Counted from the stretch's first letter, positions 23,111-48,969 are shown. The stretch is 64,000 nucleotides of DNA from an uncultured Gemmatimonadales bacterium (GCA_963850905.1 CAWKMU010000003.1:320001-384000); one strand, 5' to 3'. The notes: generated by a model from the letters alone, not told the origin. Numbers and translations are program-made.

Positions 23111-23112
23111 GG

Positions 23113-27381: not shown

Positions 27382-27912
27382 TCACTCACCGCGAAAACTG
27401 AGTTGGACCACGTATTTCCCCGGTTTGATAGTCGCATCACCTAGCTTCCAGGCCAAGCGGGCCTTCTCGTTCAAGCATTGGTTGACCTGTTCGCCAGGCG
27501 CCTTCGCCGACCACCGGGAGTTCGCCACCTTGGCGTCTTCCACACTGTTGTCCGAGATCGTGACCAGCACGGCCACCCCACCCCGCAGGGAAGGGTCCGC
27601 CTTCTGGCCGAACTCTTCGTAGCAGAAACGCGTGAACGCCTGTTCACGCTGCACCGACGCGAGCAGTGCCGCCGGCGCCGGCGGGTAGTCGACGGGCAGC
27701 ACGTCGGGCTGCGGCTTCGGTCGCGTAAAGGTGTCGGGCGCGGCCGGCGGCAACGCCGTCTGCACCTTCGACAGGTCGGTCGGCGTGGTGTCGACCGGTG
27801 GCGGAGCGACCGCGACCGTGGACACCGGCGGGTTCTTCTTGTCGCCATGACAGGCAACTACGGCCGCAGTAAGCGCCAACACGATCAATGGCCACCGTAC
27901 GCACGCGTGCAT
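27382..27912 (-). CDS. lipoprotein with AgmX/PglI C-terminal (TonB-C-like) domain
   Basis: Lipobox VVAC, Pro-rich linker, RFCYEEFGQKADPSLRGGV...NQCL, alignable by eye to the C-terminus of 30159-31139. Confidence 0.75.
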   Translation of the reverse strand: MHACVRWPLIVLALTAAVVACHGDKKNPPVSTVAVAPPPVDTTPTDLSKVQTALPPAAPDTFTRPKPQPDVLPVDYPPAPAALLASVQREQAFTRFCYEEFGQKADPSLRGGVAVLVTISDNSVEDAKVANSRWSAKAPGEQVNQCLNEKARLAWKLGDATIKPGKYVVQLSFRGE

Positions 27913-28159
27913 AGCAAGCCTCGTCAAAGACAAAGGGGAAGTGGGCCGGGCTGCCTCTCAGGCGCAGTATCCCCTCTGGGGCACTACGCTCACTACTACA
28001 GGACGGTTCCACCGTCACCGGACGTCACACCCCCTTTTTTTCTCTCCTATCTCCCTTTTTTCGTCTCCTCTCCCCTTTCTCCCTTCTCGGGCGCCAAGCG
28101 CCCGTGCCCGTCCCCTGACCCCTGACCCCTGACCCCTGACCCCTGATCCCTGCGGGTCT

Positions 28160-29038
28160 TTACCAGCTGGCTCCCCCACCGCCACCACCGCCTCCACCGC
28201 CGCCTCCAAACCCCCCAAACCCACCACCACCACCGCCAAAGCCGCCACCACCGCCCCAACCTCCACCCCCTCCCCAACCACCACCATAAGGAAGGAAGAT
28301 CGGCAGGCACCCGCGCCGCCCGCCGCCGCGCCGAGCAATCGCGCTCAGGATGATGAAGATCGCGAGCAGCAGGAAGAACAGTGCCTCGGGCGGGATCCCG
28401 CCGCCTTCCTGACCTGAGCTGCCGGGCGCCGGCGCTAGCGCGGGCAGCGTATTGGTGAAGGTGAAGTGATACTCGTTGGCAAACCGTTGGGCGGTCGAAT
28501 CGGTCACGAGCTCGAGCCCGGCCCCGTAGTTCTGGGTGCGGAAGAACGGGATGGCCGCTCGGCAGATGTCGCCCGCGTCGGCATCGGTAATGAAGCCTTC
28601 TGTGCCATACCCCGTGCTAACGAAGCAGTGGCCGCGCCCGTCCGAGCTGGTCTCCTTTGGCACGAGTAGGATCACCGCTCCGACGTTCCGGGCGGTATCA
28701 CCCGGATTCCCCTTCTTTCCCACACCCCATTGGCGAAGAACAGTCAGGGCCACGTCGGCTGGCGCCCGATCGCCGATGTCTGGGAGCGTCACGATCGCGA
28801 TCTCCCCCGACGATTTCGACTGTACCTGCTGCGCGACCGCGTTGATGTGCGCCGCGTTCTCCGAAGGAATGACGTTCGCGTAGTCGTTCAGGAAGTTCGT
28901 CGGCCGCGGGGGGATCTTGATCGCCCCGGGGTTGAGCTGCGCGTCCGCGACTGCCGGCCTGAGGGTTGTAAGGAAGGCGAGAAGCGCGACGACGAGCCAC
29001 GTGCGCGTCCGCCCGATGCGCGTGCCCGGTTCACCCAT
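28160..29038 (-). CDS. TPM-domain (YgcG-like) membrane protein with Gly-rich tail
   Basis: NDYANVI, EIAIVT, WGVGKKG, GYGTEGFITD, TM helix, GGFGGGG...GASW. Confidence 0.9.
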   Translation of the reverse strand: MGEPGTRIGRTRTWLVVALLAFLTTLRPAVADAQLNPGAIKIPPRPTNFLNDYANVIPSENAAHINAVAQQVQSKSSGEIAIVTLPDIGDRAPADVALTVLRQWGVGKKGNPGDTARNVGAVILLVPKETSSDGRGHCFVSTGYGTEGFITDADAGDICRAAIPFFRTQNYGAGLELVTDSTAQRFANEYHFTFTNTLPALAPAPGSSGQEGGGIPPEALFFLLLAIFIILSAIARRGGGRRGCLPIFLPYGGGWGGGGGWGGGGGFGGGGGGFGGFGGGGGGGGGGGGASW

Positions 29039-29141
29039 GCGCTGCCAGAGCCCCTGTGGCTGGGCACATCTGCGTCCACTCATACCAATCCAATGGATTT
29101 CCTTGCTCAGCCGCCGCGTCCTCAATAGTTTCGCCCGCTCG

Positions 29142-30158: not shown

Positions 30159-31139
30159 CTATCTCGAAAAATTGAACGAAAACTCAAACGTCCCCGCGCC
30201 CGTGCTCGATGGCGGGAACTGCCAGGCACGCGCCTTCTCGAGGATGCAGCCCTCCGCGGGGGCGGCCCCCGGGCCCGACCACGTGCGCCGGCTGACCTTC
30301 GCGTTCGTGACCGTGCCGTTCACGGCCAAGGTCAGCGCGACGGTCACCGATCCCGCGAGGTCCGGGTTCACCTTGAGCCCGTACTCGTCGTAGCAGAAGC
30401 GGAGCTGCGACTCGTGCTCACGCACGGACGTCCCCAGTGCCCCCACATCGCGCGTCGGTGCCCCGAACCCCGCGACGTCGATCGCACGCGGTGCGGATAC
30501 GCTCACACCTTCGTGGCCAATGCCTCCACCGCCATTCACACCCCCGATGGCGCCCACCGCGCCCGCGCCGCCCATGTCGCTGCGCCCCGGAGTCCGCACA
30601 CCCTGACCACCCTGGCCGTAGGCCAACACGGTCTTGCCGACCGCCTCGCCCGGCCTGGGCGCGCCGGCGTTCGCGACTGCCACGCCGCGCAACACGTTGG
30701 ACACGTCCCCGACGGGCCCGTTCTTGGGCGCGGCCCCGCCGAAAGCGGAGCTGAACGCCGCGGCGCGTTTCGCTTCCTTCTCGGCCGCCGTGGGCTGCGG
30801 CTTGGGCGCCGCCGGCGCAGGAGCCGGCTTCGGAGCTGGAGCGGGCGCCGCGGCGACGGGCTCCGGCTTCGGCGGCGCCGGAGGCGGCGGCTCGAATTTC
30901 ACGTCGATCGGACGCTCCTCCGGCGGGAGCAGATGGGTCACATCGGTGGTCGGCCCGAATGCCACCAAAAGGACCCACAGCACCCCGACCGTGCCGGAAA
31001 TGACCCACGAACCGAGAAGACCGCGACCTTCTTCGTCGGCCAGCTCGTAGCGCAGGTTCCGCGTGAACGTCGCCTCGTCCCGCACGGGCGCGGGCCGACT
31101 GACGCGGCGCGGCGTGGTCCGGCGCTCAGCCTGCGGCAT
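30159..31139 (-). CDS. TonB/TolA-like energy transducer with AgmX/PglI C-terminal domain (GltG-like)
   Basis: Single TM, Pro/Ala linker, Gly-rich region, LRFCYDEYGLKVNPDLAGSV...GCILEKARAWQFP...FSFNF. Confidence 0.85.
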   Translation of the reverse strand: MPQAERRTTPRRVSRPAPVRDEATFTRNLRYELADEEGRGLLGSWVISGTVGVLWVLLVAFGPTTDVTHLLPPEERPIDVKFEPPPPAPPKPEPVAAAPAPAPKPAPAPAAPKPQPTAAEKEAKRAAAFSSAFGGAAPKNGPVGDVSNVLRGVAVANAGAPRPGEAVGKTVLAYGQGGQGVRTPGRSDMGGAGAVGAIGGVNGGGGIGHEGVSVSAPRAIDVAGFGAPTRDVGALGTSVREHESQLRFCYDEYGLKVNPDLAGSVTVALTLAVNGTVTNAKVSRRTWSGPGAAPAEGCILEKARAWQFPPSSTGAGTFEFSFNFSR

Positions 31140-31668
31140 CAGTCACCCGACGCACTTGCAGCGACAGATTGCGGAACCCGGCCATGCGCGCCGTCTGCAT
31201 GATCCGAGACAGCAGGTCGTAGCGCATGGTGCGATCACCCTGAATCGCCAGCGGTGCATCGACGGGCTGGTCAGCCGGCTTCCGCGTCACGGCCCGGATC
31301 GAGTCCGCTCTGGATCGGAGTGCCGTATAGAGCGTTGGAATCAGGAGCGGCTCGCTCGGATCGTCGGACACCGATTGCGCAGCGTCGATCGTGTTCATGA
31401 CCGTCGTGCCAGCGAGCGTCACTTGCCGGCCGACGCCGAGAGTGAGTTGCTGCAGCGCGTTCGTGCCGACGCGTGCTTCCGGCAGGGTGACGCCTGAAAC
31501 GACTGGTGCGAGCTCGCCCACCGTTGCCGTCACCAGCGCGAAGAAGACGATGGACACGAGCGTGTCCACGAGGGGAACGAGATTCAACTCGACAAGTCTG
31601 AACTTCTGAAATTGCTTCGCGCGCCGCATCTCGCGCGCGGCTCGGGCTCGGCTGATGTGTTGCGACAT
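31126..31668 (-). CDS. ExbD/TolR family protein
   Basis: ELNLVPLVDTLVSIVFF with conserved Asp; IQGDRTMRY...AGF. Confidence 0.9.
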   Translation of the reverse strand: MSQHISRARAAREMRRAKQFQKFRLVELNLVPLVDTLVSIVFFALVTATVGELAPVVSGVTLPEARVGTNALQQLTLGVGRQVTLAGTTVMNTIDAAQSVSDDPSEPLLIPTLYTALRSRADSIRAVTRKPADQPVDAPLAIQGDRTMRYDLLSRIMQTARMAGFRNLSLQVRRVTDAAG

Positions 31669-31671
31669 GGC

Positions 31672-32214
31672 TCAGGCCCCTCCAGCCGCGGTCGCCGGAG
31701 CCGCTCGCGACCGCGTCCCGAGTCCGACGTTGGGGAACCGCGCCATCTTGAGGCGCTCGAGCACATGCACGACGTTGTCGTAACTGACCTCGTCCGCCGG
31801 GATCACGAGGACGTCGTTGTTCTGCGGATAGCGATCATGAATGTCCGCCATGACCGACTGCAGTGTGTCCAGCGACGTCGGGCCTAATCCCATAATCTCC
31901 CGGTGGTATCCGCCTTCCCCTGAGTGCTCGATCATCAGGCGATCTGCCTGGATGCGCACCGCGAGCAGCAGATTCAGTTGATCCTTGTCCGCCGTCGAGG
32001 GTTGCGGCTGCTCAGCCGTGACGATCATTGGCGGCAAGGCAAGATCAAATGATGTGAGCTCCGCCAACAGCCCCTGATAGGACACGAGGCTGAAAAACAC
32101 GATCGATGTGAGCACATCGATCAACGGGACGAGGTTGATGCCTCCGTGACCGAGCGTCGATGTCGCGCGCTCAGCTCTGCGGAGCTTGGCTCGGTGAAAC
32201 CGTGAAGCCGGCAT
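31672..32214 (-). CDS. ExbD/TolR family protein
   Basis: INLVPLIDVLTSIVFF with conserved Asp; VSYDNVVHVLE...FPNV. Confidence 0.9.
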   Translation of the reverse strand: MPASRFHRAKLRRAERATSTLGHGGINLVPLIDVLTSIVFFSLVSYQGLLAELTSFDLALPPMIVTAEQPQPSTADKDQLNLLLAVRIQADRLMIEHSGEGGYHREIMGLGPTSLDTLQSVMADIHDRYPQNNDVLVIPADEVSYDNVVHVLERLKMARFPNVGLGTRSRAAPATAAGGA

Positions 32215-32274
32215 GGGGGCCGCTAGGATCGGGGCGTCGAAGCCGCGCGTCGCTGCTTGTGTGCAGCGCGCGCG

Positions 32275-32913
32275 CTAACGCCCGATCCGAACGTCGGGGC
32301 GCTCCACCAGCGCGTTGATCAGTCGGACAGAGAACTCGTCGACTTGCTCGATGATCTCCTCAGCCTGCGAAGCGAGATACGAGTGCGCCAGCGTCAATGG
32401 AATCGCTGTGGCCAAGCCGAACCCAGTCGCATTCAACGCGATCGCGATACCCTCGGCGAGTTTGTCCGAACGTTGCGCCGCCGATGCAGCCGCGACGGAC
32501 GCGAACGCCGCTTTGAGTCCGAAGATCGTCCCAAAGAGCCCGATCAGCGTAGCCACGTTGGCGAGCACGGGAAGGTACTGCAGGCGCCGTGTCAGTCGCG
32601 GAATCACCGACAGCGAGGCCGCGTCCGCCACGTTCTGTAGGTCGCCCTCCTCCCGACTCTTGCTCCGGAGAATCAGGAGCCCGATGTCGGGCAGCGGGGC
32701 GTGCGATTGCGCGCACAGCCGCATCGCATCCTCCGGCTTTTGCGCCCGGACGAGCTGCATCACGCGTTCGATGAACGCTGGCCCGTTGATCCGTGACCGG
32801 ACGATGATCACGTAGAAGCGTTCGAGAAACACGGCAAGGCCCGCGAGCGCGACCAGGAGGATCGGCCACATGATCGGGCCGCCATTTCGGAACCACTCGA
32901 GCAGGGATTGCAT
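32275..32913 (-). CDS. MotA/TolQ/ExbB proton channel protein
   Basis: GGPIMWPI, LER, ATLIGLFGTIFGL, GIAIALNATGFGLATAIP. Confidence 0.93.
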   Translation of the reverse strand: MQSLLEWFRNGGPIMWPILLVALAGLAVFLERFYVIIVRSRINGPAFIERVMQLVRAQKPEDAMRLCAQSHAPLPDIGLLILRSKSREEGDLQNVADAASLSVIPRLTRRLQYLPVLANVATLIGLFGTIFGLKAAFASVAAASAAQRSDKLAEGIAIALNATGFGLATAIPLTLAHSYLASQAEEIIEQVDEFSVRLINALVERPDVRIGR

Positions 32914-33392
32914 CACTTCTCCCGTGGGGCGTTCGATGTCGGACCCTGTGCCGCGTCGCCGGCCTTTGCGCGCGGAGACGGCTCAGAGTTGGGGGACGGC
33001 GTGTTACCCGAGCCAATGGGGCGCGCGGATGAGTCCGCCGGAGGACGATGGCTGCTATCGGCTGGCAACGCGGGCGCCGTCCAGGCGACCGGTGCCGTGC
33101 CAGCGGCCGTCGACAGATCTGGCACGATCTGGTACGGCGCCGTCAGCGATTCCCAGAAGTGCCGGTCGTAGAAGGCCGGCGTCAGCACCTCTCGACTGAA
33201 GATCGGGATCTGGCGCGGACGCACCGTTACCACCTGCGGCGTCGGCACTTGCCCGCGGATCTCGATAGGCTGGACGCCCTTGGCCTTGGACGGCGCGGGC
33301 GCCGGATTGCCCGGTTGCTGGGCGCTCGCACTGGCCGCCGCGAGCACGAGGCCGACCGACGCCCAGACGAGGCGCGCGCGCTCAGAGATCAT
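32913..33392 (-). CDS. small secreted protein, GltF/CglF-like motif
   Basis: Signal peptide ASASA-Q; IEIRGQVPTPQVVTVRPR; overlaps both neighbours. Confidence 0.65.
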   Translation of the reverse strand: MISERARLVWASVGLVLAAASASAQQPGNPAPAPSKAKGVQPIEIRGQVPTPQVVTVRPRQIPIFSREVLTPAFYDRHFWESLTAPYQIVPDLSTAAGTAPVAWTAPALPADSSHRPPADSSARPIGSGNTPSPNSEPSPRAKAGDAAQGPTSNAPREK

Positions 33393-36300
33393 CGGGCACC
33401 TTCCCCTGCAGGCCGTCGTGAGCCATGTCGATCCACTTGTTGGCGATCTTTTGCTGCGCGGCCTTGTCGACCAGGGCCTGCCAGGTCTTCTGGGCCTGGT
33501 CGAAGTAGCTCGCGGCCTGGCGTGCGGCACCGTCCTTTGCGGCCGAACGCTCGGCATCGCTCAGAGCCGCCGGTAGTTGGGCGTCCTTCAGGAAGTTGCC
33601 GTATTCCCACTGGGCCGCACCGATATAATAGGTAGCCGCCGAGAGATAGTCCGGATCACCCGCTTCGATGGCTCGGGTGAATGTCTTCGTCAGGCCGTTG
33701 AGCAACTCGAGCTTCGGCGCAGATGCACGCTTGACGCCCAGAGCTGTCAGTTGCGACGTCCTGGCGATGACGAGTCGGATCGGGCGATACCGCTGGAACT
33801 GTTGCACGCCTTCCGCAAAGGCTGCTCGACCCGCCCGGGCCGCGCAATCGGCCTTGAGGTCAGGTGGTGGCGTGGCCGTACACATGGCGGCGAGCTCGGT
33901 GTTGACGGCACTCGTGTCACCCACCGTCTTGAGGAGCGTCACCCGCAACGAACGCGCCGATGTCGCCCGGCTGTCGAGCGGGTAGCGGCGGGCGAAGTCA
34001 CCGAGCGTCCGCGCCGCAGTCGCCGTGTCGCGCGCTTCGAGATAGGTCGCCGCGGCATTGTACAGAGCGTCGCTGGCACGCTTGTCGTGCGGATAGTCGA
34101 CCGCAAACTGCTCGTACGCGATGGCCGCCTCTTTCTGCCGATGCAGCGAGTCCAGACGCACGGCCAGGCGGATCTCGGCGTCCGCTCGACCGTGCCACTC
34201 CGGATTGTCCTCGATCATCTTCCGCAAGGCGTCGATCGACTCGTCGCCCTTGCCGATTTCGGCCAAGAGATCCGCATACAACGTCTGGTACTGCAGCCGG
34301 TACCGGTACAGCGGATATTGCGTGATCAGTCGCTTGGAGAGCTCCGCCGCGTGCCCGCGGGCGTCCTTCGACGCGGCCAGATCGCCCTTCCCGCGCGCGA
34401 CGCTGTCCGCGAGCATGTAGGTCTCGATGGCGTCGCGCAGCGCATCGGCTGCCTTTTCGCTCGTGGGATTCGCATCCGCATAGGCCACGTACACGTCTTG
34501 CGCCGCCTGCTGATACTGCCCGGCCTTGACGAGTGAGTCGGCGTATGTCGACGCGGCGGCCGCCTGGATGCGCTTCACGGAGTCCGCCAGCGCCTGATGA
34601 CCATTGTGCACGGCGCTCGCGTACGCCGAATCCCACTGCGCCTGCGCGGTCCCGTACTTGCCGGCCTTGTACATCGCGTCACCGACGAGCTTCATCGCCG
34701 TCGGCGTGTATGCGTCCTGCGGGTATTGCGATGCGTATTGCCGGAACGCTGATGCCATCACGTCCCAGCGTCCCGACTCCGACGCCCGGCGGCCTTCCTC
34801 GATCAGCGCCCGCTTCGCGACATCGGTGTGCGGGTAATGCTCGGCGTATGCGTTGATCACCGAGAACAGCGAGTCCTGCAGCGACCGGTCGGCCTTGCGC
34901 GCACTCAGCGCCGAGTCGTACGCGACGATCGCGTTCTGCGCCGCGCGCTGCTCGGACGCCGTCACCGCCTTGCTCGTGTCCTCGGGGAATCCGTACGCCG
35001 TGCGCGCGTATTCGGCACCCGCGCGTGAATACTGGCCGTCACCGAACAGCGCCTCGGCGTACAGGTTGTCGACGGCACGTGCACTGTCCGACGCCCCATA
35101 GTCCGCCATGTACTTCGCATACAGTCGCGCCGCCTCGGCGAAGTGCTGGCGGGTCGCTGCCAGTGCGACGCCCGTCGCCGGGCCGCTGCCGAACGCCGAC
35201 GCCGCCTGCGACCGGCGCCGCGTCCGCGTCGCGTCTGATCCGGCGACGCCCTCCGCCTTCGCCAACTCATACTGCGCGCTCTCCCGCAACGCCGACTCGC
35301 GCGCGTCGCGGGATTCTTTGGAAAGGCTCGGATTCGCCCCGGTCCACGAGAACCCGGGCGTGAACTTGTCGACGAGCGCCAGCCGCGCGCTCTGTGCCTT
35401 GTCCGGCTCCAGCGTGCGATTCTGATAAATGTCGATGACCTCTCGCGACACACTGAGGGCGATGGAGTCGTTTGGCGCCTCGATGAGCAGCTCGCGATAC
35501 GCGTCCACCGCGCGACCGAAATCGCCCTGGTCCCGCAGCCGCGCCGCGACGCGCCGCAACACCTGCGCTTTGTAGCCCGTGTCGACACGACCGGTGAAGT
35601 AGTGATTCATCGCATCGGCCCCGCCGACCTGCGTGAACGAGACAGCCATGTAGTCCATGGTCTCGTCACGCAGTCCGAGGCGCGCCTGTCGGTCCGTCGG
35701 GAGCTTGTCGTAGGCCTCGACCAGTCGTCCGAAGACATCGACGGCCTGCCGGTACCCGTCCTGGTTTTGCTGCGACGCCTGGCTGTAGTAGGACCAGCCC
35801 AGCTTGTAGAGGGCCAGATAGTAGATGTCACCCGTCGCCGGGGCGATCGCGGCCGCTTGCTCGTACGCTGCAGCCGCTTTGCCAAACATTGCCTGCCGCG
35901 GCGCGCCCCGCGCCGCGCTCGCCATCTCGAACCGCGCATCGCCAAGCCGGAACCACGACTCCGCGCGCAACGGAGAATCCTGAATGCCGCTCACCTTCTC
36001 GAACATCCCGGCCGCATCGGTATAATGCTCCTCGGCGCCGTACAACGTGCCCAGGGTGTACGTGGCTCCGTCCAACTGCGGGAAGGTCGGATAGTGTTGC
36101 ACCAACTCCTCGAGTCGTGCGATCGCCACTGCATAGTCCGGGTGAGCCGAAGCCTCCCCGCGCGCAGCACGGCTCGTATCGTTTACCGTGGCCCGCTGCG
36201 CGGCTGCGAACCGCTCGTCGGCGCGCCGGACCAGCAGCTCTCCAAGCTCGTAGAGTGCGCCCGCACGCGCCGGGCTGTTGGGATAGCGTGCGATCACCTG

Positions 36301-38580
36301 CTCGAGCGTGGCGATCGCCGAATCCGGCAGCGGGTCCCCCGAGCGGCTCGACCCGTTGGCGGCGGCGTCGCTCGCGATCTGGCGGAAGAAGCCGGCACCT
36401 GCCGCGCCAAAGTCTGCCGCTTCGACGCTCCGGCGGGCCTCCTCCGCGACCACGGCGCCACGCACGCTCAGGTCTCGCTCGACCAGTGACGTCACACTCG
36501 CGGCTGCTTGCTCCTGATGCGCCGCCGACGCCGTCAGGAACGACCGGAGCGCGCCGCGCAAACTGTCGCCCTGCGTCACACGCGCCATCTGGTCATCGAC
36601 GGCAGCCTCGCCCGATGTCACCGCTCGCCGCGTCTGGATGAGAAGTTCCCGCGTGCGCTCCCCTCGGAGCCGCACCGTATCGCGCAACGCGAAGGCCGGA
36701 TGCGCGGCGATCGCAGCCGCGAGACCTTGATCGATCACGTCGGCCACATGCGAGTATTCCGCAGCGGTCGCGGCTTCGCGGTCCAGCGTCTCCAGATCCT
36801 CCGGAGAGCCGGCTTTCCCGACCATTTGCCGCACACTGTCGATCTGTCGGATGTTCTCGCTCGCCAGAGTCCGCGTGCTCGTCAGCTGCGGGTTGAACAG
36901 GTCGCGGAGGCGCACGCCCGCTTCGTCCACCCGTTGCGTCACCCTCGCGAGCGAATCCTCGTCGCGCGACAGTCTGTTGAACATCGGCCCCAGGCTGTCA
37001 CCCGCCGCAGTAATGCTGGCCCGTTCCCGCTCCAGCAGCTGGATCTGCAGCGCGAGGTTGCTGCGACGGCTCGCCAGCGCGGCGTTCCCCACAGCGACTT
37101 CGACATCGGCCGCGTGCAGCGCGTGGACGCCGCGGTCCAAATCGGCTCGCGCCGAACGACCGGCTGCGTCCGAGGGTTCGGAGACAAACACGGCCTGGCG
37201 GAGGTTGTCGCGTTCCGCCGGGGTAAGTCCTTCGCTCGAACGGTTTGCAAGGGAATCCACGCGGACGGTGACGCTCGCGACGGAGAGGATAGCCGGCGGA
37301 GCGAAGTTCGGGGACAACCCCGTTTTCGCGCCATTGCCCGCGGTCTGCAGCGCCTCAGCTTGCGCGCCGGCGCTGTCAGCGAACACCCACGTCTTACCCA
37401 ATGACACATCCGGGACGAGCAGCACGTCGGCCGCGCGTGCGGTGACCAGCGCACGCGCAGTTGCTCCTGGTGCTGCCGCCCACTGCGCGGTGTGCTGTGC
37501 CGCCGTGCCAGCCGAGTCCGCCACCGCGCGGAAGGCACCCTCGGCGTCGCGCGCGCGATCCTGCACCAAGAGCCCTTGCGCCGCCATGAGGCGGTCCTCA
37601 TTGCGTCGCGGCAATTGCGGATAGCGGTCGGCGACGTCGTCGAAAGCCTCTGCCGAAAGGTCGGGATGATCACCGCGCGTGAGGGCCCAGGCACGGACGG
37701 TCCTGGCCGCCGCGTCGGACGCACTGCGCGGATCCACGCGACTCGCGGCGGCAGCCGCCTGCTCGTACGATCCCGCGTCGGCGGTCAGTTCCGCGCTCGC
37801 AAGCCGCAGCTGGTCAGCCGCGTCCCCCGTTGCCGTCATCAAGGCGGCATCGACGGACGCGATCGCCGCGGATGCATGCGCCGTGTCCGCGCGCGCGGCG
37901 GCAATCGCGTTCATGTACCGAGCGTAGTCAGCATACGGGCCCGTGCCCGCGAGTTGCTGCGCGCGCGTGAAGGCGGCGTGCGCCGCGTTCAGGTCGCCGC
38001 TCTGATACTCGATCAGTCCGGTGACCAGTGCCGATGCCGTTGTCTGCTCATCGTGGCTGACGTCTTTCAGGACGCTGAGCCCGCGAGTCAGATCGCCGGT
38101 GCGATAGGCGCTAAAGAGGAGCTGCGTGCGCAGGACTGCGCCGTAACGACCAGCTGCCGGGCCCGCCAGCACCGCCTCCGCCGCCACGCGCATGCTGTCA
38201 TCCATGCCCAGGCGATAGAAGGATTCGGCCAGGAGAAACTGGCGGTCAGGCTCGCCGCGCCACTGCGCACCGTCATTGCCCGCCGGCGGAGGCACGACCG
38301 ATCGGAGTCGGGCCAGCGCGGCGATCGCCTGGCCGTTGAGGACATCGAACAGAGCAACCCGGATTTCCGCATCGGCCGCACGTCCCTCGTTCAACTCCGG
38401 GATGAGCGCCGTGTCAGCCGTTGGCGCGACCCTCCGCGCCGGCAATGAATCGATCGCCGGTTGGCTCGCGCGGGTCCGCGCCAGCGTTGACGTGTCGCGC
38501 GTGGCCCGTCCAGCCTGCGCCATGACGGGAGAGGCAACGGCTGCAACGGCCAGCAGCCCAAGGATGCGCAGGCACGTCAT
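33382..38580 (-). CDS. giant secreted TPR-repeat protein (~1732 aa, GltD-like)
   Basis: Signal peptide MTCLRILGLLAVAAVASPVMA; many YP..ALY.LG repeats (ALYELGELL, ALYKLGWSYY, ALYNAA). Confidence 0.85.
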   Translation of the reverse strand: MTCLRILGLLAVAAVASPVMAQAGRATRDTSTLARTRASQPAIDSLPARRVAPTADTALIPELNEGRAADAEIRVALFDVLNGQAIAALARLRSVVPPPAGNDGAQWRGEPDRQFLLAESFYRLGMDDSMRVAAEAVLAGPAAGRYGAVLRTQLLFSAYRTGDLTRGLSVLKDVSHDEQTTASALVTGLIEYQSGDLNAAHAAFTRAQQLAGTGPYADYARYMNAIAAARADTAHASAAIASVDAALMTATGDAADQLRLASAELTADAGSYEQAAAAASRVDPRSASDAAARTVRAWALTRGDHPDLSAEAFDDVADRYPQLPRRNEDRLMAAQGLLVQDRARDAEGAFRAVADSAGTAAQHTAQWAAAPGATARALVTARAADVLLVPDVSLGKTWVFADSAGAQAEALQTAGNGAKTGLSPNFAPPAILSVASVTVRVDSLANRSSEGLTPAERDNLRQAVFVSEPSDAAGRSARADLDRGVHALHAADVEVAVGNAALASRRSNLALQIQLLERERASITAAGDSLGPMFNRLSRDEDSLARVTQRVDEAGVRLRDLFNPQLTSTRTLASENIRQIDSVRQMVGKAGSPEDLETLDREAATAAEYSHVADVIDQGLAAAIAAHPAFALRDTVRLRGERTRELLIQTRRAVTSGEAAVDDQMARVTQGDSLRGALRSFLTASAAHQEQAAASVTSLVERDLSVRGAVVAEEARRSVEAADFGAAGAGFFRQIASDAAANGSSRSGDPLPDSAIATLEQVIARYPNSPARAGALYELGELLVRRADERFAAAQRATVNDTSRAARGEASAHPDYAVAIARLEELVQHYPTFPQLDGATYTLGTLYGAEEHYTDAAGMFEKVSGIQDSPLRAESWFRLGDARFEMASAARGAPRQAMFGKAAAAYEQAAAIAPATGDIYYLALYKLGWSYYSQASQQNQDGYRQAVDVFGRLVEAYDKLPTDRQARLGLRDETMDYMAVSFTQVGGADAMNHYFTGRVDTGYKAQVLRRVAARLRDQGDFGRAVDAYRELLIEAPNDSIALSVSREVIDIYQNRTLEPDKAQSARLALVDKFTPGFSWTGANPSLSKESRDARESALRESAQYELAKAEGVAGSDATRTRRRSQAASAFGSGPATGVALAATRQHFAEAARLYAKYMADYGASDSARAVDNLYAEALFGDGQYSRAGAEYARTAYGFPEDTSKAVTASEQRAAQNAIVAYDSALSARKADRSLQDSLFSVINAYAEHYPHTDVAKRALIEEGRRASESGRWDVMASAFRQYASQYPQDAYTPTAMKLVGDAMYKAGKYGTAQAQWDSAYASAVHNGHQALADSVKRIQAAAASTYADSLVKAGQYQQAAQDVYVAYADANPTSEKAADALRDAIETYMLADSVARGKGDLAASKDARGHAAELSKRLITQYPLYRYRLQYQTLYADLLAEIGKGDESIDALRKMIEDNPEWHGRADAEIRLAVRLDSLHRQKEAAIAYEQFAVDYPHDKRASDALYNAAATYLEARDTATAARTLGDFARRYPLDSRATSARSLRVTLLKTVGDTSAVNTELAAMCTATPPPDLKADCAARAGRAAFAEGVQQFQRYRPIRLVIARTSQLTALGVKRASAPKLELLNGLTKTFTRAIEAGDPDYLSAATYYIGAAQWEYGNFLKDAQLPAALSDAERSAAKDGAARQAASYFDQAQKTWQALVDKAAQQKIANKWIDMAHDGLQGKVPDDL

Positions 38581-38675
38581 GGGAGAGACGCACCGCGACA
38601 CCCCCAGCTCACGGGCGCGGATCGGTCCGCCCTGCTCCGCGACTGCTCGGGACTCGAGGTCCGGCGCGCGCCCAA

Positions 38676-39435
38676 TTAGGGCGACGTTCCGCTGCGATTG
38701 GACCACGTGCTCAGCACGAGTTGGCCGTTGCGTACGGCGAACTGCACGTACGTGATGGCGGCCGTAGGGACATCGACGTTCGCAGCCTTCGTCAGCGACG
38801 CGCCGTTGACGACAGCTGTAGCCGAGACCGTATGCGTCGCCGGGAGGACGTTCGAGTGATACGCCTCGTCGACGGCGCCCGCGTTGAGGGCGTCGACCGC
38901 GCCCACACTGTAGTGGCGCACGACGGCAGGGGCGCTGTCCACCTGCACGGAGATGTTGTCGAATGCGCTGCACTTGCGCACTCGAATCGACCCGGATGAC
39001 GACGACCAGCTCGGCAGCCGCCCGGCGACGAACCGCTTCGCCCAACGACAAGAATCGATCTCGCTGCGCCAGCAGGTTGTCCTGCGACGCGGTGAGCACA
39101 GAATCGAGCGATCGGAGCGCCGTGGTCTCGTGGGACAAGAGCAGCTGGCTGGCACGCGCTTCCGACGCCTTGGCCGCGACGCTCTCGACTCGAGACTCGA
39201 GCTTGATGCGCTCGCTGCGCAACTCGGCCAGCTTCCGCTCTGCCGATCGAATGTCGTTCAGCTCAGCCTGGCGCTTCGTGAGGTACTCTTGTTCGGCCGC
39301 GGCCGCGGCGTGACTCGACGATGTATCCGGTATCCGATGGGCCGCCGTGTCCTGAGCCGCGACCGTTGTCCCGATACTGACGAGCGCGATGAGGGCCCCG
39401 AGCACACTGCGCCAGGAGCGCGAACCCATGTTCAT
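38676..39435 (-). CDS. secreted coiled-coil plus beta-sandwich protein (1 apparent frameshift at ~38962)
   Basis: Signal peptide, heptad region; continues as DNISVQVDSAPAVVRHYS...ALNAGAV...SN..PATH in ORF 38676-39155. Confidence 0.75.
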
Positions 39436-40739
39436 GGCGCGTGCTCGCTGTTGGGGGGCGCCGATGGCGGCGTCGATGGCGGCGTCGCCGGTGGTGTCGT
39501 GGGTGGTGTTGTGGACGTTGGGGCCGACGAGGAGCCGCTACTCCCCTCGGTCTCGGACTCGATGCGGCGCAGCCGGTCCTCGAGGTGGTGGAGCGCGTCG
39601 GTCTCCGTCTCCAGTTGGTTCTGCGCCTGGGCGCGCCGCTCCTCGAGCTCGAGCAGGTTCTGCGCCTCGTACCGATGGATCTCACCCTGCAGCTGCGCGA
39701 TGCGCAGCTGGTGTTCCCCGATTTGGGTCAACAGCTCGTCGCGTTGCTTCTTGAGCGCGGCGACCCGGTTCTCCAACACGTTGCCGTGGACCAGCGCCAG
39801 GAAGTTGCTCTCCCAGCCCAGGGAGAAGTTGAGCTTCGTGTAGCGATACAGTGCCGATGCCGGGTCGCTGGCCACGAACTTCGGATTCCCCGCGCCGAGC
39901 TCGGTCACCGCTACGCCAGCCCGCAACCCGCGATAGGACACGTACGTGCCCACATTGAAGTCCCAGGCATTGTTCTCCGCCATCACCGACAGGAGCGTGT
40001 TCGGCGTCGGCCGGAAATCCGTCTTGATACCATAGAAGAAGCCCCCGGTCGCGTCCGCCGCATAGTCGCGCGTCGGCAGTGACCCGTGATTCGAGAAGAG
40101 GCCATTGCCGTATCCGAGCGACAGGCTGACGCCAACGTCGGGCCACGTCGAGCGCAGATCGGTCAAGGAGAAGCTCTTGGTCGCGACGCCATAGACCGTG
40201 TTGGCGGTCGAGAAGCCGCGATGCACCGAATCCGCTCCGATGACCGGCGCCGTGCCGCCGCCGGGGTTGAACCCTTGGGCATACCCCAAGCCGAACCGAT
40301 CGATATGATCGTAGGGGCCAATGTTCCGCATACCGATGGCGAGCGACGGCAGGAATGACCCCGTTCGGCCACGGAAATTCTCCGCATTCCACAACAGGAC
40401 ACGCCCATAGAACCCGTGCTCGAAGTCCTTGGATAGGACCGACATCCCGAGTTCGACATGCTGGAAGAGGGACACGCCGAGGGAGCCCGTCCCGACCATC
40501 GAGTTCTGGTATTGCGGCACCGTGGGCGATGTTTGCAACGCCGTCCCGGACCAATTGAGCGAGAAGTCGCCCGACATCGGCGAGACCCAGGCGGCCGGGA
40601 TGTCGATCAACCCAGTGTCCCAATGCAGGGTCTGGGCAAACTCGGGTTGCGCTTGCACACGGCGCCCCAAGAGCATGGCGACGGCGAGCAGCACCACGCT
40701 CCAGCGGTGCACCGCTCGCGAGGCGTCAGGTCGGGTCAC
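39432..40739 (-). CDS. YjbH-like outer-membrane beta-barrel protein with C-terminal coiled coil
   Basis: Signal peptide; TGLIDIPAAWVSP; amphipathic beta strands; ~70-aa heptad tail; paralog of next gene. Confidence 0.65.
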   Translation of the reverse strand: MTRPDASRAVHRWSVVLLAVAMLLGRRVQAQPEFAQTLHWDTGLIDIPAAWVSPMSGDFSLNWSGTALQTSPTVPQYQNSMVGTGSLGVSLFQHVELGMSVLSKDFEHGFYGRVLLWNAENFRGRTGSFLPSLAIGMRNIGPYDHIDRFGLGYAQGFNPGGGTAPVIGADSVHRGFSTANTVYGVATKSFSLTDLRSTWPDVGVSLSLGYGNGLFSNHGSLPTRDYAADATGGFFYGIKTDFRPTPNTLLSVMAENNAWDFNVGTYVSYRGLRAGVAVTELGAGNPKFVASDPASALYRYTKLNFSLGWESNFLALVHGNVLENRVAALKKQRDELLTQIGEHQLRIAQLQGEIHRYEAQNLLELEERRAQAQNQLETETDALHHLEDRLRRIESETEGSSGSSSAPTSTTPPTTPPATPPSTPPSAPPNSEHAP

Positions 40740-41974
40740 TGCGGCTGCCCTCCCTGGAGCTGCTTGAGCCGGTCATTCGCCTTCTGGATCGCGTCGCGCT
40801 CGGCCTGCAACTCTTTCTCCAGTTGGTCTCGCTGTTTGGCGACGTCTCCAACCTCGCTCTGTTGCAGCGTGGCGAGACGGGTCTGCAGCTGCGCGACCAT
40901 CTGCGCACGGTGGGACACCTGCACGCGAAGCTCTTGCTCCTCGCGCTCCAGGGAGGTGATCTGCGTGCGCAGCACATGCCCGTTGATCACGTCATGGATG
41001 TTTCCACTGTACCCGAGCGCGATATCCCACTTACGGTAGTTGTAGAGGTTCAAGCTCGCCGGACTGACGGTCGAGCCCTTATCCAGCTCGGTCGCGTAAA
41101 TGCCCGCGGACAACCCTCGCCACGCCCCGAGCACGCCTGCGTTCCAGTCCCACCCATTGTTTTCTCCGACGAGCGAGATAGTCGTATTCGGCGTCGGATG
41201 CGTTACGGTCCGTGCGCCGAAGAACAGCCCCCGGACGACAGTCCCGGACTTGTCGTACGCGGCCCCAAGGCCGCCGTCGTCGCTGAACAATCCATTGCCG
41301 CCACCAATCGTGAGACTGATGCTCGAGAGCGCCTTGGTGTTGATCGCAATGGCTTTCGTCGCGACGGCGTAGAAGGTGGGTGCAGTCTCGAACTTCTTGA
41401 AGTACGGCGCCGTCTCTTCGTGCGTCTGGCCCCCGCTATCAACGGCGACGTCGCTGCCGATCAGGAAGCGCTCCTCATGATTGAACGGGCCAAGGTTGCG
41501 GACCCCTACGGCGATCGCCGGCATGAAGGAGGCGAATTGCCCATCGCGGACCGCCAGGACCTGACCGAAGAAACCCCATTCGGGATTGTTGCTGTAGACC
41601 GAGAGCCCCACATCGAACCGCTGCAGCCAGTGCGTGTCGATCGCGATGTTGCCGTTCCAGTGCGATGGCGTGCCGACCCCGCTGGGCGGTGCATTCATAT
41701 GCATTGCCCCGTAGGAGAGCCAGAAATCGGACGAATTGGGAGAGATCCAGGCGACCGGCACGGTGATCAGCCCCGTACCGAAGTCGAGTGTGGCGGGATA
41801 CCACTCTTCCGCCGCCGGAGGGGCCGAAGAGCCGCTTGGCGCGACATGCGTGCTGTCGGACGCAATGGCCTGCCCATGGGCGGCCGTGGCCGTCCAAGCC
41901 AGGACCCCAAGGAGTCCGGCAGCAATACGACACCAGTGCGCCGGACGGGAGTGTCCGCGCCGCAACCTCTGCAT
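40736..41974 (-). CDS. YjbH-like outer-membrane beta-barrel protein with C-terminal coiled coil
   Basis: TGLITVPVAWISP, PAIAVGVRNLGP, YAVATK, GGGNGLFS, ENNGWDWNAG; heptad tail. Confidence 0.65.
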   Translation of the reverse strand: MQRLRRGHSRPAHWCRIAAGLLGVLAWTATAAHGQAIASDSTHVAPSGSSAPPAAEEWYPATLDFGTGLITVPVAWISPNSSDFWLSYGAMHMNAPPSGVGTPSHWNGNIAIDTHWLQRFDVGLSVYSNNPEWGFFGQVLAVRDGQFASFMPAIAVGVRNLGPFNHEERFLIGSDVAVDSGGQTHEETAPYFKKFETAPTFYAVATKAIAINTKALSSISLTIGGGNGLFSDDGGLGAAYDKSGTVVRGLFFGARTVTHPTPNTTISLVGENNGWDWNAGVLGAWRGLSAGIYATELDKGSTVSPASLNLYNYRKWDIALGYSGNIHDVINGHVLRTQITSLEREEQELRVQVSHRAQMVAQLQTRLATLQQSEVGDVAKQRDQLEKELQAERDAIQKANDRLKQLQGGQPQ

Positions 41975-42139: not shown

Positions 42140-42940
42140 ATGACGACAGATAGACCGAAATCGTTGCACACAAGGCCACGCTATCCGGACGGCTGGAACG
42201 TCGCAACCGCAACGCTAAATGCGAGACGGGGATGGGCCCCCGCGGCGGGCACCCCGAGGCGCGCCGCCCTCACGGCTGCCGCATGCGCCCTCTTGGCCGT
42301 GGGACCTGCCTGTCGCTCGGGTGGGAACGGAGGGTCCGCGCATGCAGCTAGCCAGCCCTCCCAGACACCCCCGGCGGCCGGAAAGGGGACGGACACCCTC
42401 ACGACGCGGATGGACCTCTCCCGGATCCTGGGGGACAGCTCCGCGCGGGTGTGGTTCGTCGTTGCGAGCGACTTTCAGTGTCCCTACTGCAAGCAGTTCC
42501 ACGATCAGTCGTTCGGGGCCATCCGCGATCAATACGTGTCCACGGGCAAGGTGCGTATCGCCTACATCAACTATCCCCTGCCTATCCACGCCAACGCCTG
42601 GCCATCGGCGGAAGCGGCGATGTGCGCCGGCGCGCAGGGCAAGTTCTGGCAGATGCACGACGGGCTGTTTGCGTCCCAGCAGCGGTGGGAGGACAAGCAC
42701 CCACCGACTGCCGTGCTCGACTCTGTCGCACATGCGATCGGGGTCGACACCACCGCCATGAACGCGTGTATGACGGGGCCACAGGTGCACGCGTTGATCG
42801 AAGCGGACCGAGACCGCGCCGACCAGTCGGGCGTGAATGCGACTCCAACGATCATCATCGGCCGCAACCTGATGCCCGGCGTCGAACCGATCCAGAACTA
42901 CCGTCACGTACTCGACTCCGCCCTCGCGGCAAGTCGGTAG
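42140..42940 (+). CDS. DsbA-family thioredoxin-fold lipoprotein (start uncertain)
   Basis: SDFQCPYC, QGKFWQMHD, GVNATPT. Confidence 0.88.
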   Translation: MTTDRPKSLHTRPRYPDGWNVATATLNARRGWAPAAGTPRRAALTAAACALLAVGPACRSGGNGGSAHAASQPSQTPPAAGKGTDTLTTRMDLSRILGDSSARVWFVVASDFQCPYCKQFHDQSFGAIRDQYVSTGKVRIAYINYPLPIHANAWPSAEAAMCAGAQGKFWQMHDGLFASQQRWEDKHPPTAVLDSVAHAIGVDTTAMNACMTGPQVHALIEADRDRADQSGVNATPTIIIGRNLMPGVEPIQNYRHVLDSALAASR

Positions 42941-42968: not shown

Positions 42969-44288
42969 GTGAACGCCCTGGTCGGCGCCGCGTACAGGAT
43001 TGCAGGGACCCTCGCCGCGGGTATCGCCGATATCGCCGGCGGCTTCCCGGGCGAGGGCAAGCTGCTCCGAACGCTCCGCGCCCGCCGTGGTCTGCTGGCG
43101 CGCTACGACACGTGGGCCGCGTCTGAGCGCGTCCGTACCAGACCGCTCCTGTGGATGCACGCCCCGTCGGTCGGTGAAGGGTTGCAGGCGCGACCGGTTC
43201 TCGAGCAGATGCGTCGACGCCACCCCACCCTGCAACTCGCCTACACCTACTTCTCACCGAGCGCCGAGCCATTTGCCCAGGGACTCCGGGCCGACGGCGT
43301 CGCGGACTTCGCCGATTACCTGCCATGGGACACCGCGCACGACATGCGACAGGCGCTGGTAGCGCTCGCACCGACTGCACTGGTTTTTTCGAAGCTCGAC
43401 GTGTGGCCGGTGCTGGTCCAGGCCGCCGCGGACCGACACACGCGACTCGGGCTCATTAGCGCGACATTGAGCGCGGTCTCGGGCCGGCGCTCGCGCGCGG
43501 CCGTTGCCCTGCTTCGCGATGCGTACGCACGGCTCGACGCAGTGGGCGCGATCACCGAGGCGGACGCGGAGCGCTTGCGGGCGCTGGGAGTTCGTCAGCA
43601 GGCGTTGCGTGTGACGGGCGACACCCGGTACGACCAGGTGTGGGCCAGGGCGCAGCGCGTGGACCGCACCGCCATGCCTGTCGCAGCGTTGTTGACGCCG
43701 CGACGACCGACGCTCGTCGCCGGCTCGACCTGGCCGTCGGACGAGCGCATCGTCCTCGCCGGGTGGGCCGCGCTGCGCGGTCGATTTCCATCGCTGCGGC
43801 TCGTGCTGGCGCCGCACGAGCCAACGCCCGCACATCTGGCACCGGTCGAGCAGTGGGCGAGTGCCCGGGGCTATCGCTGCGCCCGACTGGATGCTCGCGA
43901 CCTGTCCAGCGCGGACGTGGTGATCGTCGATCGCGTCGGCGTGCTAGGCGTTCTGTATGCGGCAGCCGACGTCGCCTTCGTCGGCGGCGGTTTTCACGGG
44001 GCCGGTCTGCATTCGGTCGTCGAACCGGCGGCGTTCGGCGCACCCGTGGTGTTTGGCCCGCACCATCAATCGAGCGCCGACGCCCAGCGTCTCCTCGCCG
44101 CCGGCGGTGCGCGGGTGGCTGTCGACGCCGAGACCTTTGCCACGATCATGGGCGCATGGCTCGCCGACGACGCCGCCCGCCGCGACGCCGGCGCCCGCGC
44201 CCGTCAGGTCGTCGAGTCAGGCCTCGGCGCGACCGATCGGTCGGTAGAGATGGTTGAGGAACTGCTGGAGCTAGACGTTGGACGTTAG
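42969..44288 (+). CDS. waaA: Kdo transferase
   Basis: WMHAPSVGE, YLPWD, GDTRYD, AGSTW, APHEP, FVGGGF..GLHSVVEPA. Confidence 0.88.
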   Translation: MNALVGAAYRIAGTLAAGIADIAGGFPGEGKLLRTLRARRGLLARYDTWAASERVRTRPLLWMHAPSVGEGLQARPVLEQMRRRHPTLQLAYTYFSPSAEPFAQGLRADGVADFADYLPWDTAHDMRQALVALAPTALVFSKLDVWPVLVQAAADRHTRLGLISATLSAVSGRRSRAAVALLRDAYARLDAVGAITEADAERLRALGVRQQALRVTGDTRYDQVWARAQRVDRTAMPVAALLTPRRPTLVAGSTWPSDERIVLAGWAALRGRFPSLRLVLAPHEPTPAHLAPVEQWASARGYRCARLDARDLSSADVVIVDRVGVLGVLYAAADVAFVGGGFHGAGLHSVVEPAAFGAPVVFGPHHQSSADAQRLLAAGGARVAVDAETFATIMGAWLADDAARRDAGARARQVVESGLGATDRSVEMVEELLELDVGR

Positions 44289-45529
44289 ACGTCCTTATCG
44301 CCTTTCAGGAAGTACCCCTGTACCAAATGCACCCCGAGATCCTGTAGCGTCGCCAGCTCTTCGGCACGCTCCACGCCCTCGGCGATCACACGCGTGCTCT
44401 GCTCGTTGGCAAACCGCACCATCGTCTCGACGAGATTCTGCTTCACCGCGTTGCCGTCGATACCCGCGATGAGCGACATGTCGAGCTTGATGAAGTCCGG
44501 CTCGAGGTTGGCAATCGAACCCAGGCCCGAGTAGCCACTCCCCGCGTCATCGACGGCGAAGCGGTAGCCGAGCTCGCGGAAGGCGCGCATCCGCTCGCGC
44601 ATCGTCGGGTAGTCGGTGATCGCCGTGCGCTCGGTGATCTCGATGACCACTTGATGCGGATCATGCGACCCCGCAGGCCCGGCGGCGGCGCCGGGCAACG
44701 CCGCGGTCTCGCTTGCGAATTCCGGGTCCGCGAAATCCTGCGGGTCGGCGTTCACGAACAGGAGTTGGTCGGGTCCCAGGCGGTCGTGCATGCCCTCGTA
44801 CGCCTTCGCCCGGCAGAGTCGACTCAGCTCCCAGTGCAGGTTGCCCTCGGCGGCGAGCGAGAACATCACTTCCGGGTTCCGCAGTGTGCGCACCACGCCC
44901 CGCGCCAACGCCTCGTATCCGAATACCGTGCCCGTCTCGGCCACCACGATCGGATCGTACTCGATGTAGACCGCGCGGTCACGCAGGCTCGCGCGCAGCT
45001 GCGCCAGCTGCCGGGCGCGGTCTCGCTGTGCGACACTGCGCGCCGCGGCGGCCGCCTCGCGGACGCCACGATAGATCAGTCGCTCCACGCGCAGCTTGGG
45101 GTCGACCATCACGTGGGAGCGACCAATGAACACGTCGACCAGCGTCGCGATCTCGGCACCATGCACCGCCTCCACACGCCCGGCCACCGCGGCTTGCAAC
45201 CCACGCGCAAGACGGGCGACGTCCGCCTCGACCTTGATGGCGACGCCGACGCCGGACACTGGTGGGATGTCGAGGCACACGACGTCCTCGTCGTGCGGAA
45301 TGACCGTGGCGGCTCGCAGACGGTGCGGACCATCCGGCGATCGCAGCTCGCGCAGTCGATCGACCACCGCCGCCTGGGCGGTCTCGAGTACGGCATCGAG
45401 TTTTTCCCAGCCGTAGACCTTTTCTAATTTGGCAAAACGGCCAAATGAGAGGTACAGGACCGTCACCTCACCGCGCGCACTGATCTCCGCGCGTGCCTCG
45501 CCGACTACGTCATTGAGGGAGGGAAGCAC
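44285..45529 (-). CDS. EAL-domain c-di-GMP phosphodiesterase with degenerate GGDEF-like N-terminus
   Basis: YEALAR, LFVN, EITE, AVDDAGSGYS, PDFIKLD, AEGVE, QGY. Confidence 0.88.
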   Translation of the reverse strand: MLPSLNDVVGEARAEISARGEVTVLYLSFGRFAKLEKVYGWEKLDAVLETAQAAVVDRLRELRSPDGPHRLRAATVIPHDEDVVCLDIPPVSGVGVAIKVEADVARLARGLQAAVAGRVEAVHGAEIATLVDVFIGRSHVMVDPKLRVERLIYRGVREAAAAARSVAQRDRARQLAQLRASLRDRAVYIEYDPIVVAETGTVFGYEALARGVVRTLRNPEVMFSLAAEGNLHWELSRLCRAKAYEGMHDRLGPDQLLFVNADPQDFADPEFASETAALPGAAAGPAGSHDPHQVVIEITERTAITDYPTMRERMRAFRELGYRFAVDDAGSGYSGLGSIANLEPDFIKLDMSLIAGIDGNAVKQNLVETMVRFANEQSTRVIAEGVERAEELATLQDLGVHLVQGYFLKGDKDV

Positions 45530-45565
45530 CGTCCACGCTGCGCAGAGCGCCGCAACTCATCGGCG

Positions 45566-46294: not shown

Positions 46295-46311
46295 GCGCGG
46301 CCGCGGGGTGC

Positions 46312-46566: not shown

Positions 46567-46568
46567 GA

Positions 46569-48940
<2,372 letters not shown>

Positions 48941-48969
48941 GTCGGGGTCTCAGCGAGCTCGCGCCGCCA

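Follow-up and report, generated by a model that had tools for sequence, protein, structure and literature searches.

We analysed a 64,000-nucleotide (nt) stretch of DNA (the window, numbered from its first letter) from an uncultured Gemmatimonadales bacterium (GCA_963850905.1, CAWKMU010000003.1:320001-384000). The genome holding the window comprises 4.49 Mb in 6 contigs, is 82% complete, and has its nearest named relatives among the Gemmatimonadaceae/Gemmatimonadales. Nine co-oriented genes on the minus strand (41974-30159), hereafter the cassette, had been described from the sequence alone, in what we call the original prediction, as an Agl-Glt-like envelope machine driven by the proton-motive force. 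The operon is a variant of the known Agl/Glt core complex, not a new machine. All nine genes are present, and the unit is not complete at nine, as a lipoprotein gene (Lip) is a tenth member. The genes are as follows (aa, amino acids; TM, transmembrane; TPR, tetratricopeptide repeat).

40736..41974, minus strand: barrel 1 (B1), 412 aa; start resembles a signal peptide (by eye); beta-barrel of the FapF/YjbH-N type with 12 predicted strands
39432..40739, minus strand: barrel 2 (B2), 435 aa; tandem paralogue of B1 (~34% identity) with the same barrel and coil layout
38676..39435, minus strand: gene 3 (C3), ~252 aa in relatives; ~100-aa helical/coiled-coil part and a transthyretin-like beta-sandwich
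38962..38963, minus strand: extra base that frameshifts gene 3, absent in relatives
33382..38580, minus strand: giant TPR scaffold, 1732 aa; GltC-like N-terminal half (~aa 1-745) fused to a GltD-like C-terminal half
32913..33392, minus strand: small secreted protein (S5), 159 aa; largely disordered, carrying a single short motif that is invariant; counterpart of GltF in position
32275..32916, minus strand: ExbB/TolQ-family subunit of the AglR clade (by tree), 212-213 aa; PF01618 over cut-off
31672..32214, minus strand: ExbD-like 1, 180 aa; PF02472 over cut-off; TM Asp33 invariant
31126..31668, minus strand: ExbD-like 2, 180 aa; PF02472 over cut-off; TM Asp35 invariant
30159..31139, minus strand: GltG-like TonB-type transducer, 326 aa; TM helix 41-59, Pro/Ala and Gly linkers, AgmX/PglI C-terminal domain
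27382..27933, minus strand: tenth gene (Lip), 183 aa; carries another AgmX/PglI-like domain and is predicted to be a lipoprotein

The nine co-oriented genes and the five junctions quoted in the original prediction were found exactly in the sequence. Five of the eight junctions overlap (GTGA at 40736-39, ATGA at 39432-35, ATGATCTCTGA at 33382-92, TGATG at 32911-15, and 14 nt at 31126-39), and the remaining gaps are 95, ~60 and 3 nt. The G + C content of the cassette is on par with the remainder of the window. A promoter scan returned 0 sigma-70 sites, and terminator predictions were near chance (13 versus 8.1 ± 3.3). The gene arrangement is not due to chance, because, among 48 related loci whose sequence extends at least 9.5 kb upstream of exbB, 46 contain the full set of six units on that side; the predicted synteny of the five upstream genes with exbB was thus kept.

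Core-complex operons outside the myxobacteria (Gammaproteobacteria, Geobacter and Fibrobacter) were described by Luciano et al. 2011 (PMC3169522), so the non-myxobacterial host, which the original prediction had presented as a surprise, is not one. According to that paper the core complex consists of the Group B genes aglR, aglQ, aglS, gltC, gltD, gltE and gltG, together with one additional gene that has no myxobacterial homologue. The word "gemmatimonad" is absent from its main text, and literature searches outside the subscription journals found no printed description of the cassette in Gemmatimonadota among the entries listed.

A plasmid search led to a degenerate Vibrio locus with the same layout, whose ExbB led in turn to proteins of Marinobacter, Hahella, Oceanobacter and Agarilytica, and these to 80 metagenome loci. 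The 80 loci carry GltE-like and GltG-like genes, one of them (L144) with TIGR04565 barrels, and were taken as the gammaproteobacterial core complex of PMC3169522 (gamma loci). A search of a viral collection returned no relative, and no RNA holder came up. The Vibrio locus (L046) lies on Vibrio alginolyticus plasmid pMBL287 (7260-14464), beside large Ig-like domain genes, and ExbBs related to its copy are widespread in Vibrio. At four gamma loci (L144, L146, L171 and L190), thioredoxin-like, ApbE-like and small GGGCGCN-ending genes precede the operon (by eye).

Profiles built from the Gemmatimonadaceae loci matched the gamma loci in the same gene order, with profile-profile scores falling on the diagonal; seven of the eight core-derived units (all but S5) matched one-to-one and in order. 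In HHalign comparisons with the gamma families, ExbB matched the AglR-like family (E 1.1e-43) and the transducer the GltG-like family (E 4.2e-12), while ExbD1 had its best match in the first gamma ExbD (E 2.2e-12) and ExbD2 in the second (E 1.2e-21). The C-terminal half of the TPR protein matched the gamma GltD-position family over 853 columns (E 1.9e-51), a family named GltD by position and size. Its N-terminal half matched the GltC-position family over 289 columns from the N-terminus (probability 95, E 2.4e-8); support for GltC is moderate, because cross-matches of a generic TPR kind go as far as E 1e-6, and the TPR protein had no match to NF033756. The proposed GltD identity therefore holds for the C-terminal half and not for the protein as a whole. 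Of 59 loci examined for the TPR gene, 51 have it as two separate genes (~760 and 1000 aa) and four as a fusion; four are unclear. The motif of S5 aligned with that of the gamma small protein at a non-significant HHalign probability of 0.09, and S5 had no NCBIfam match.

Gene 3 matched the unnamed gene that occupies its position in the gamma loci (HHalign E 2.9e-5, 131 columns) and is, on this profile evidence, its homologue. C3 probably corresponds to the "additional gene" of Luciano et al. 2011. In an independent search of 1.84 billion representatives with C3, 72 of the 150 listed matches were nearer to the gamma profile, and the named proteins among the matches include ones from Gammaproteobacteria and one from Krumholzibacteria. 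Longer C3 homologues (P0309, P0311 and P0329, one of them the named Krumholzibacteria protein), together with an Eisenbacteria cluster in the Atlas, suggest more variants in neighbouring phyla. The AlphaFold2 (AF2) model of C3 had a pLDDT of 83. Its matches to Bacteroides fimbrial/adhesion folds (TM-score ~0.3) reflect a generic transthyretin-like sandwich and gave no grounds for calling C3 an adhesin.

One extra T at 38962-63 shifts the frame of gene 3, and the frame of third-position G + C switches at the same point. Because of this frameshift, a mechanical gene caller fuses the first half of gene 3 to the TPR gene, giving a 2017-aa open reading frame (ORF). This ORF was ruled out as a true protein by the frame switch, by a 94%-identical relative (G278) that lacks the extra base, by an intact gene 3 in 14 of 14 relatives, and by one short-read contig (at least 99% alike, depth 2.8) without the base. 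The extra base is probably an assembly error, as rpoB and coxL are likewise broken in this assembly. With the frameshift accounted for, the true start of the TPR gene is 38580.

The ExbB tree (71 rows) placed 14 cassette and 24 gamma-type sequences apart from 31 housekeeping paralogues and E. coli TolQ/ExbB with an SH-aLRT of 100. It came from a quick search with long E. coli branches, its housekeeping rows represent two Gemmatimonadales paralogues, and its rows include no myxobacterial sequence. The other two exbB/tolQ loci of the genome are an exbB-exbD set and a tolQ-tolR-tolB-pal-cpoB set (L243). The cassette ExbB thus lies off the TolQ/ExbB branch, and the view that the machine is Agl/Glt-like rather than Ton- or Tol-like stands. 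So does that of a functional-looking channel: the TM Asp was invariant in 75 of 75 ExbD1 and 72 of 72 ExbD2 rows, and both ExbB threonines (T130 and T164) in all 81 rows. The transducer scored 59.3 bits against NF033768 AgmX/PglI (cut-off 40) and matched the GltG model with E 1.6e-9, far below that model's cut-off. Only 40 aa precede its TM helix, a short cytoplasmic N-terminus without an FHA domain.

A GltE-like TPR lipoprotein had no ORF in the cassette of the 80 mapped loci, and genome-wide searches of five genomes returned generic TPR matches only, none over the cut-off. Because GltE was looked for and not found, we file the operon as a variant and not as a strict member of the core complex. 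In five cassette genomes, neither GltJ (NF033761) nor a GltA/B/H-type barrel (TIGR04565) was over cut-off, and nothing matched the N-terminal 300 positions of the GltJ model. The original prediction, which had noted an outer-membrane module of the operon's own and neither GltE nor an FHA extension, proved right on all three points.

The AF2 model of B1 (pLDDT 76) showed 12 strands followed by two long helices. Its top Foldseek match was FapF, at modest values (E 1.4e-5, TM-score 0.36/0.46), and its ESM Atlas value to the YjbH PF06082 cluster was 0.93. The C-terminal coiled coil spans ~85 aa and is presumably periplasmic. In profile-profile comparison, B1 and B2 matched no gamma core profile and were unrelated to the TIGR04565 barrels of the gamma loci. 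Pfam and NCBIfam scans assigned B1, B2, C3 and S5 to no family and yielded nothing beyond coiled-coil noise. In a sequence search of the PDB, the barrels matched coiled coils only, and ExbB matched TolQ/ExbB. "YjbH-like" therefore denotes a resemblance, as direct sequence support is weak. YjbH and GfcD have been linked to capsule export, and a FapF-family N-terminal barrel has been predicted for both (PMC8346858).

The Lip domain is ~36% identical to the C-terminal domain of the transducer and scored below the cut-off against NF033768 (E 8e-5). A lipobox-like motif was present in 46 of 54 Lip ORFs. Lip orthologues (E<1e-30) occurred in 16 of 301 genomes, all 16 with cassette barrels or ExbB, and Lip was not beside lemA in any of five cassette-less genomes; at three loci (L033, L034 and L350) it directly followed the transducer gene. 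Lip is co-inherited with the cassette. A third AgmX/PglI protein is encoded in the region G000:C3:1114836-1116416 (L041; L241:9836-11416). It is a stand-alone, Pro/Ala-rich protein of 526 aa that matched the GltG model with E 5e-16, and similar stand-alone copies were found in several cassette genomes.

The neighbourhood around Lip contains the following genes.

28160-29125, minus strand: TPM-domain gene, conserved family-wide
26708-27301, minus strand: lemA, conserved family-wide
23113-26232, minus strand: SusC/RagA receptor (TIGR04056, 425 bits), 4 kb downstream of the cassette
21557-23317, minus strand: SusD-like lipoprotein (by eye), with no family match

In relatives, a nucleotidyltransferase-like gene lies between the TPM gene and lemA; it was not seen in the window, where Lip fills the interval. 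The TPM gene, the nucleotidyltransferase-like gene, lemA, dsbA and kdtA were rejected as parts of the machine, as the same block occurred in five of five cassette-less genomes. A DsbA-like gene adjoins the cassette divergently (~42147-42940), and 42969-50592 (kdtA, an EAL-domain gene, a small outer-membrane barrel and ATP synthase genes) is an ordinary conserved neighbourhood. A short tandem repeat of ~six 7-bp units lies between the TPM gene and Lip (~28060-28110) and is absent from G278.

The original prediction noted no receptor in the operon; a SusC gene does lie 4 kb downstream on the same strand, but looks incidental. It bears on an alternative in which the operon would be a dedicated Ton-like system that energises the import of nutrients, either by SusC-type receptors or by the operon's own barrels. 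A SusC gene followed lemA in 31 of 80 loci (many truncated) and in none of five cassette-less genomes, and a similar TPR-TPR-ExbB-ExbD-ExbD-TonB cluster of Fibrobacter is upregulated on cellulose, with cellodextrin import proposed (PMC6851124). The non-orthologous neighbouring SusC and the Fibrobacter proteomics make uptake the second-ranked rival. The 24 downstream SusCs that we compared fell into at least three groups that were just 24-29% identical to one another, and are therefore not one dedicated receptor; a role of the downstream SusC as such a receptor was not supported. In addition, the genome has ~25 SusC-like loci and its own exbBD locus, the transducer domain scored only 17.9 against TIGR01352 (cut-off 27.1) compared with its NF033768 score, and no such receptor was seen at five gamma loci inspected. 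On balance we regard uptake as improbable. The site after lemA, with non-orthologous SusC genes in many cassette genomes, is possibly an insertion hotspot.

The distribution of the cassette was examined in two samples. The first comprised 69 genomes of the family and 231 from eleven further families in the phylum. Of the 69, 14 had both barrels as well as gene 3; gene 3 was found in none of the 231. A lone weak barrel homologue was found in 25 of 47 genomes of one other family (f7). A scan of a genome collection detected 159 ExbB loci. We mapped the best 80 of these, 79 of them titled Gemmatimonadota; because only these 80 were covered, the scan is silent on other phyla. In the second sample (121 family genomes), the cassette ExbB was present in 50, or 47 after subtraction of three lone-exbB relics; these 47 cassette genomes were mostly scored without a gene-by-gene check. 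The tallies include two unpublished genomes (G157 and G332, the former also in the Lip tally); neither is in the tree, and no conclusion hinges on them. In the three relics (L347, L348 and L349, in G383, G344 and G327) a lone, diverged, open exbB lies between dsbA and the TPM gene, as either a cassette relic or a kept orphan channel subunit. The flanks are the same in the five cassette-less genomes. In four of these the site is empty and dsbA adjoins the TPM gene directly, and in one a SusC gene lies between the two. On the RpoB tree (89 of the 121 genomes; 88 after removal of one short long-branch row), the cassette required 13 changes, at least eight of them forced by well-supported branches, and the midpoint-rooted fit was loss-only. 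We infer that the cassette was ancestral at one site and was lost repeatedly.

The cassette and flagellar genes were nearly mutually exclusive. Among the 121 genomes, 47 had the cassette, 37 had FliG, 38 had neither, and one had both, compared with 14.4 expected; this sole co-occurrence (G318) combined a complete cassette with FliG and FlhA. Pagel tests on 88 genomes gave p values of 0.006, 0.002 and 0.003 for three roots, and 0.005 on the 75 genomes left after removal of the 13 least complete or most contaminated. A simulation of independent evolution gave P 0.004 (before the three exbB-only relics were relabelled). The Pagel test over-calls when independent events are few. Independent pairs numbered 3:0 (p 0.25) and 2.5:0.2, too few for significance. 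Incomplete metagenome-assembled genomes depress the cassette-FliG co-occurrence somewhat. A control trait, CoxL, was not associated with FliG (9 observed, 8.6 expected, p 0.34). Two sister genomes differed reciprocally, G234 having the cassette without FliG and FlhA and G099 the reverse.

Because of this exclusion, the first-ranked rival has the operon standing in for the flagellum in these lineages as a machine for gliding or surface motility, in which the motor would drag barrel-bound adhesins along the cell. The association tests, the null CoxL control and the G234/G099 contrast all point that way. On the other side stand the small number of independent pairs, the 38 genomes with neither system, and G318 with both. 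Habitat may also confound the exclusion, since flagella track aquatic habitats: in the phylum they occur mostly in wastewater and freshwater genomes, and CoxL is soil-enriched (PMC10581226). Habitat is thus a possible common cause, which one control trait does not exclude. The lack of GltJ and GltA/B-type matches over cut-off in five cassette genomes and the GltG without FHA also count against motility, as do the Roadblock/MglB-like genes, which occur in cassette-less genomes as well, and the judgement in PMC3169522 that the core complex alone is probably insufficient for gliding. We therefore consider motility doubtful. A bolder form, in which non-flagellated soil Gemmatimonadaceae glide by a core motor turned to motility independently of Myxococcus, through YjbH/FapF-type barrels and a second TonB-domain lipoprotein and traded against the flagellum, appears unlikely.

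We also considered that the operon might be an additional Tol-like system for tethering or remodelling the outer membrane, with the barrel stalks as spacers. In most of six copies (L035-L040) from family f7, the same barrel is joined through a Pro-rich linker to an OmpA/Pal-like C-terminal domain (by eye), a protein that, from its domain layout, could possibly be a major envelope tether; AglRQS has moreover been modelled as TolQR-like (PMC11761067). However, the genome carries a complete tolQ-tolR-tolB-pal-cpoB locus elsewhere. The cassette is dispensable, being present in 47 of the 121 genomes of the family and repeatedly lost, with exbB-only relics. Tethering would also leave the flagellar exclusion unexplained. 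This explanation is very improbable.

Given the observed parts list, one-to-one core homology, intact channel residues, co-inheritance and near-exclusion with flagellar genes, we propose by analogy that the operon encodes a proton-driven surface-transport motor that would move or position a cargo, polymer or adhesin, at its own outer-membrane barrels (probability of about 0.45). Agl-Glt and Agl-Nfs have been described as surface transport systems acting on polysaccharide, with the core proposed as the basal transport machinery (PMC3858216). We take the output to be movement of surface cargo because this activity is shared by the two systems, because the barrels resemble export-type barrels, and because the known motility add-ons were not found. 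Collinearity with the gamma loci, the ExbB tree, the separate tol-pal and exbBD loci, the FapF/YjbH-N-like barrels, and the occurrence of the cassette in non-flagellated lineages were counted in its favour.

The force path is borrowed from Tol/Ton and from AlphaFold models of Agl-Glt (PMC11761067). Five ExbB subunits would enclose an ExbD1/ExbD2 heterodimer, and proton flow would be converted into a mechanical pull across the periplasm, the stroke being received in such models by the GltG-like TM helix. The linker and AgmX/PglI domain of the transducer may then hold the TPR scaffold by its GltD-like half, and the S5 motif would extend the AgmX/PglI domain by one strand, a role modelled for GltF. 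The GltC-like half and the C3 coiled coil would dock on the periplasmic stalks of B1 and B2, and the AgmX/PglI domain of Lip could act as a further grip, anchored in the membrane and standing in for the missing GltE/GltJ. Such an output would suit cells that live attached to surfaces and do not swim, and would be comparable to the spreading of spore-coat polysaccharide by Agl-Nfs.

Several observations weigh against a surface-transport motor. No cargo, polysaccharide or adhesin gene was linked to the cassette in 80 loci, in a search covering the cassette genes and five neighbours. Both barrels were missing from two of the 48 loci, with no barrel found elsewhere in those two genomes, which indicates that the motor can persist without them; a further genome with this layout (G342) may duplicate one of the two. 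The PF06082 link is weak, as the Pfam scan gave no match at B1 or B2, which fell below every Pfam threshold, and the match to E. coli YjbH spans just 30 columns (E 0.0012, probability 19.5). Finally, Myxococcus enters the comparison by way of NCBIfam models and the 2011 paper, not by way of M. xanthus sequences.

This lineage offers a natural experiment in which one chromosomal site occurs in complete, barrel-less, exbB-only and empty states, and in which the cassette is strongly and negatively associated with flagella. Should this association be functional, it would be the first comparative hint, from a soil group that is abundant, that the core can serve motility or life on surfaces even where the myxobacterial add-ons are missing; should it reflect habitat only, the locus merely adds to the variants of a known system. 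The swapped outer-membrane module shows that the motor-scaffold unit accepts unrelated barrels.

Compared with known systems, B1 and B2 share with YjbH/GfcD and FapF the predicted 12 strands, FapF as top structural match, a similar short N-terminal motif and the ESM-feature match. They differ in consisting of a single ~270-aa barrel followed by a coiled coil, not the two-part 698-aa layout, in scoring below the PF06082 gathering threshold, and in that no capsule genes were seen near the cassette. With Ton and Tol-Pal the cassette shares the proton-channel superfamily and the conserved Asp/Thr residues, but its ExbB forms a separate clade, it has two distinct ExbDs and TPR scaffolds, and the genome has its own Ton-type and Tol-Pal loci. 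Membership in Ton is contradicted by the ExbB clade, the TIGR01352 score and the non-orthology of the neighbouring SusCs, and membership in Tol-Pal by tolB and pal, which are missing from the operon and present at L243. With M. xanthus Agl-Glt and Agl-Nfs it shares one TolQ-like and two TolR-like subunits, a transducer with a TonB C-terminal domain, TPR scaffolds and outer-membrane barrels, and differs in having no GltA/B-type barrel, GltJ or GltE over cut-off and a GltG without FHA.

The closest system is the core complex itself, with the same gene order in a single operon, a small secreted protein ahead of ExbB, and homologues of the unnamed gene, the GltC-like and GltD-like proteins, AglR, the two ExbDs and the GltG-like transducer. 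The cassette differs from it in having no GltE-like TPR lipoprotein, in the fusion of GltC and GltD in the window, in two FapF/YjbH-like coiled-coil-stalk barrels where gamma locus L144 has TIGR04565 barrels, in the extra lipoprotein with a second AgmX/PglI domain, and in its near-exclusion with flagella. New here, within a known core complex, are thus the barrel swap, the absence of GltE together with the GltC/GltD fusion, Lip, and the near-exclusion with flagella.

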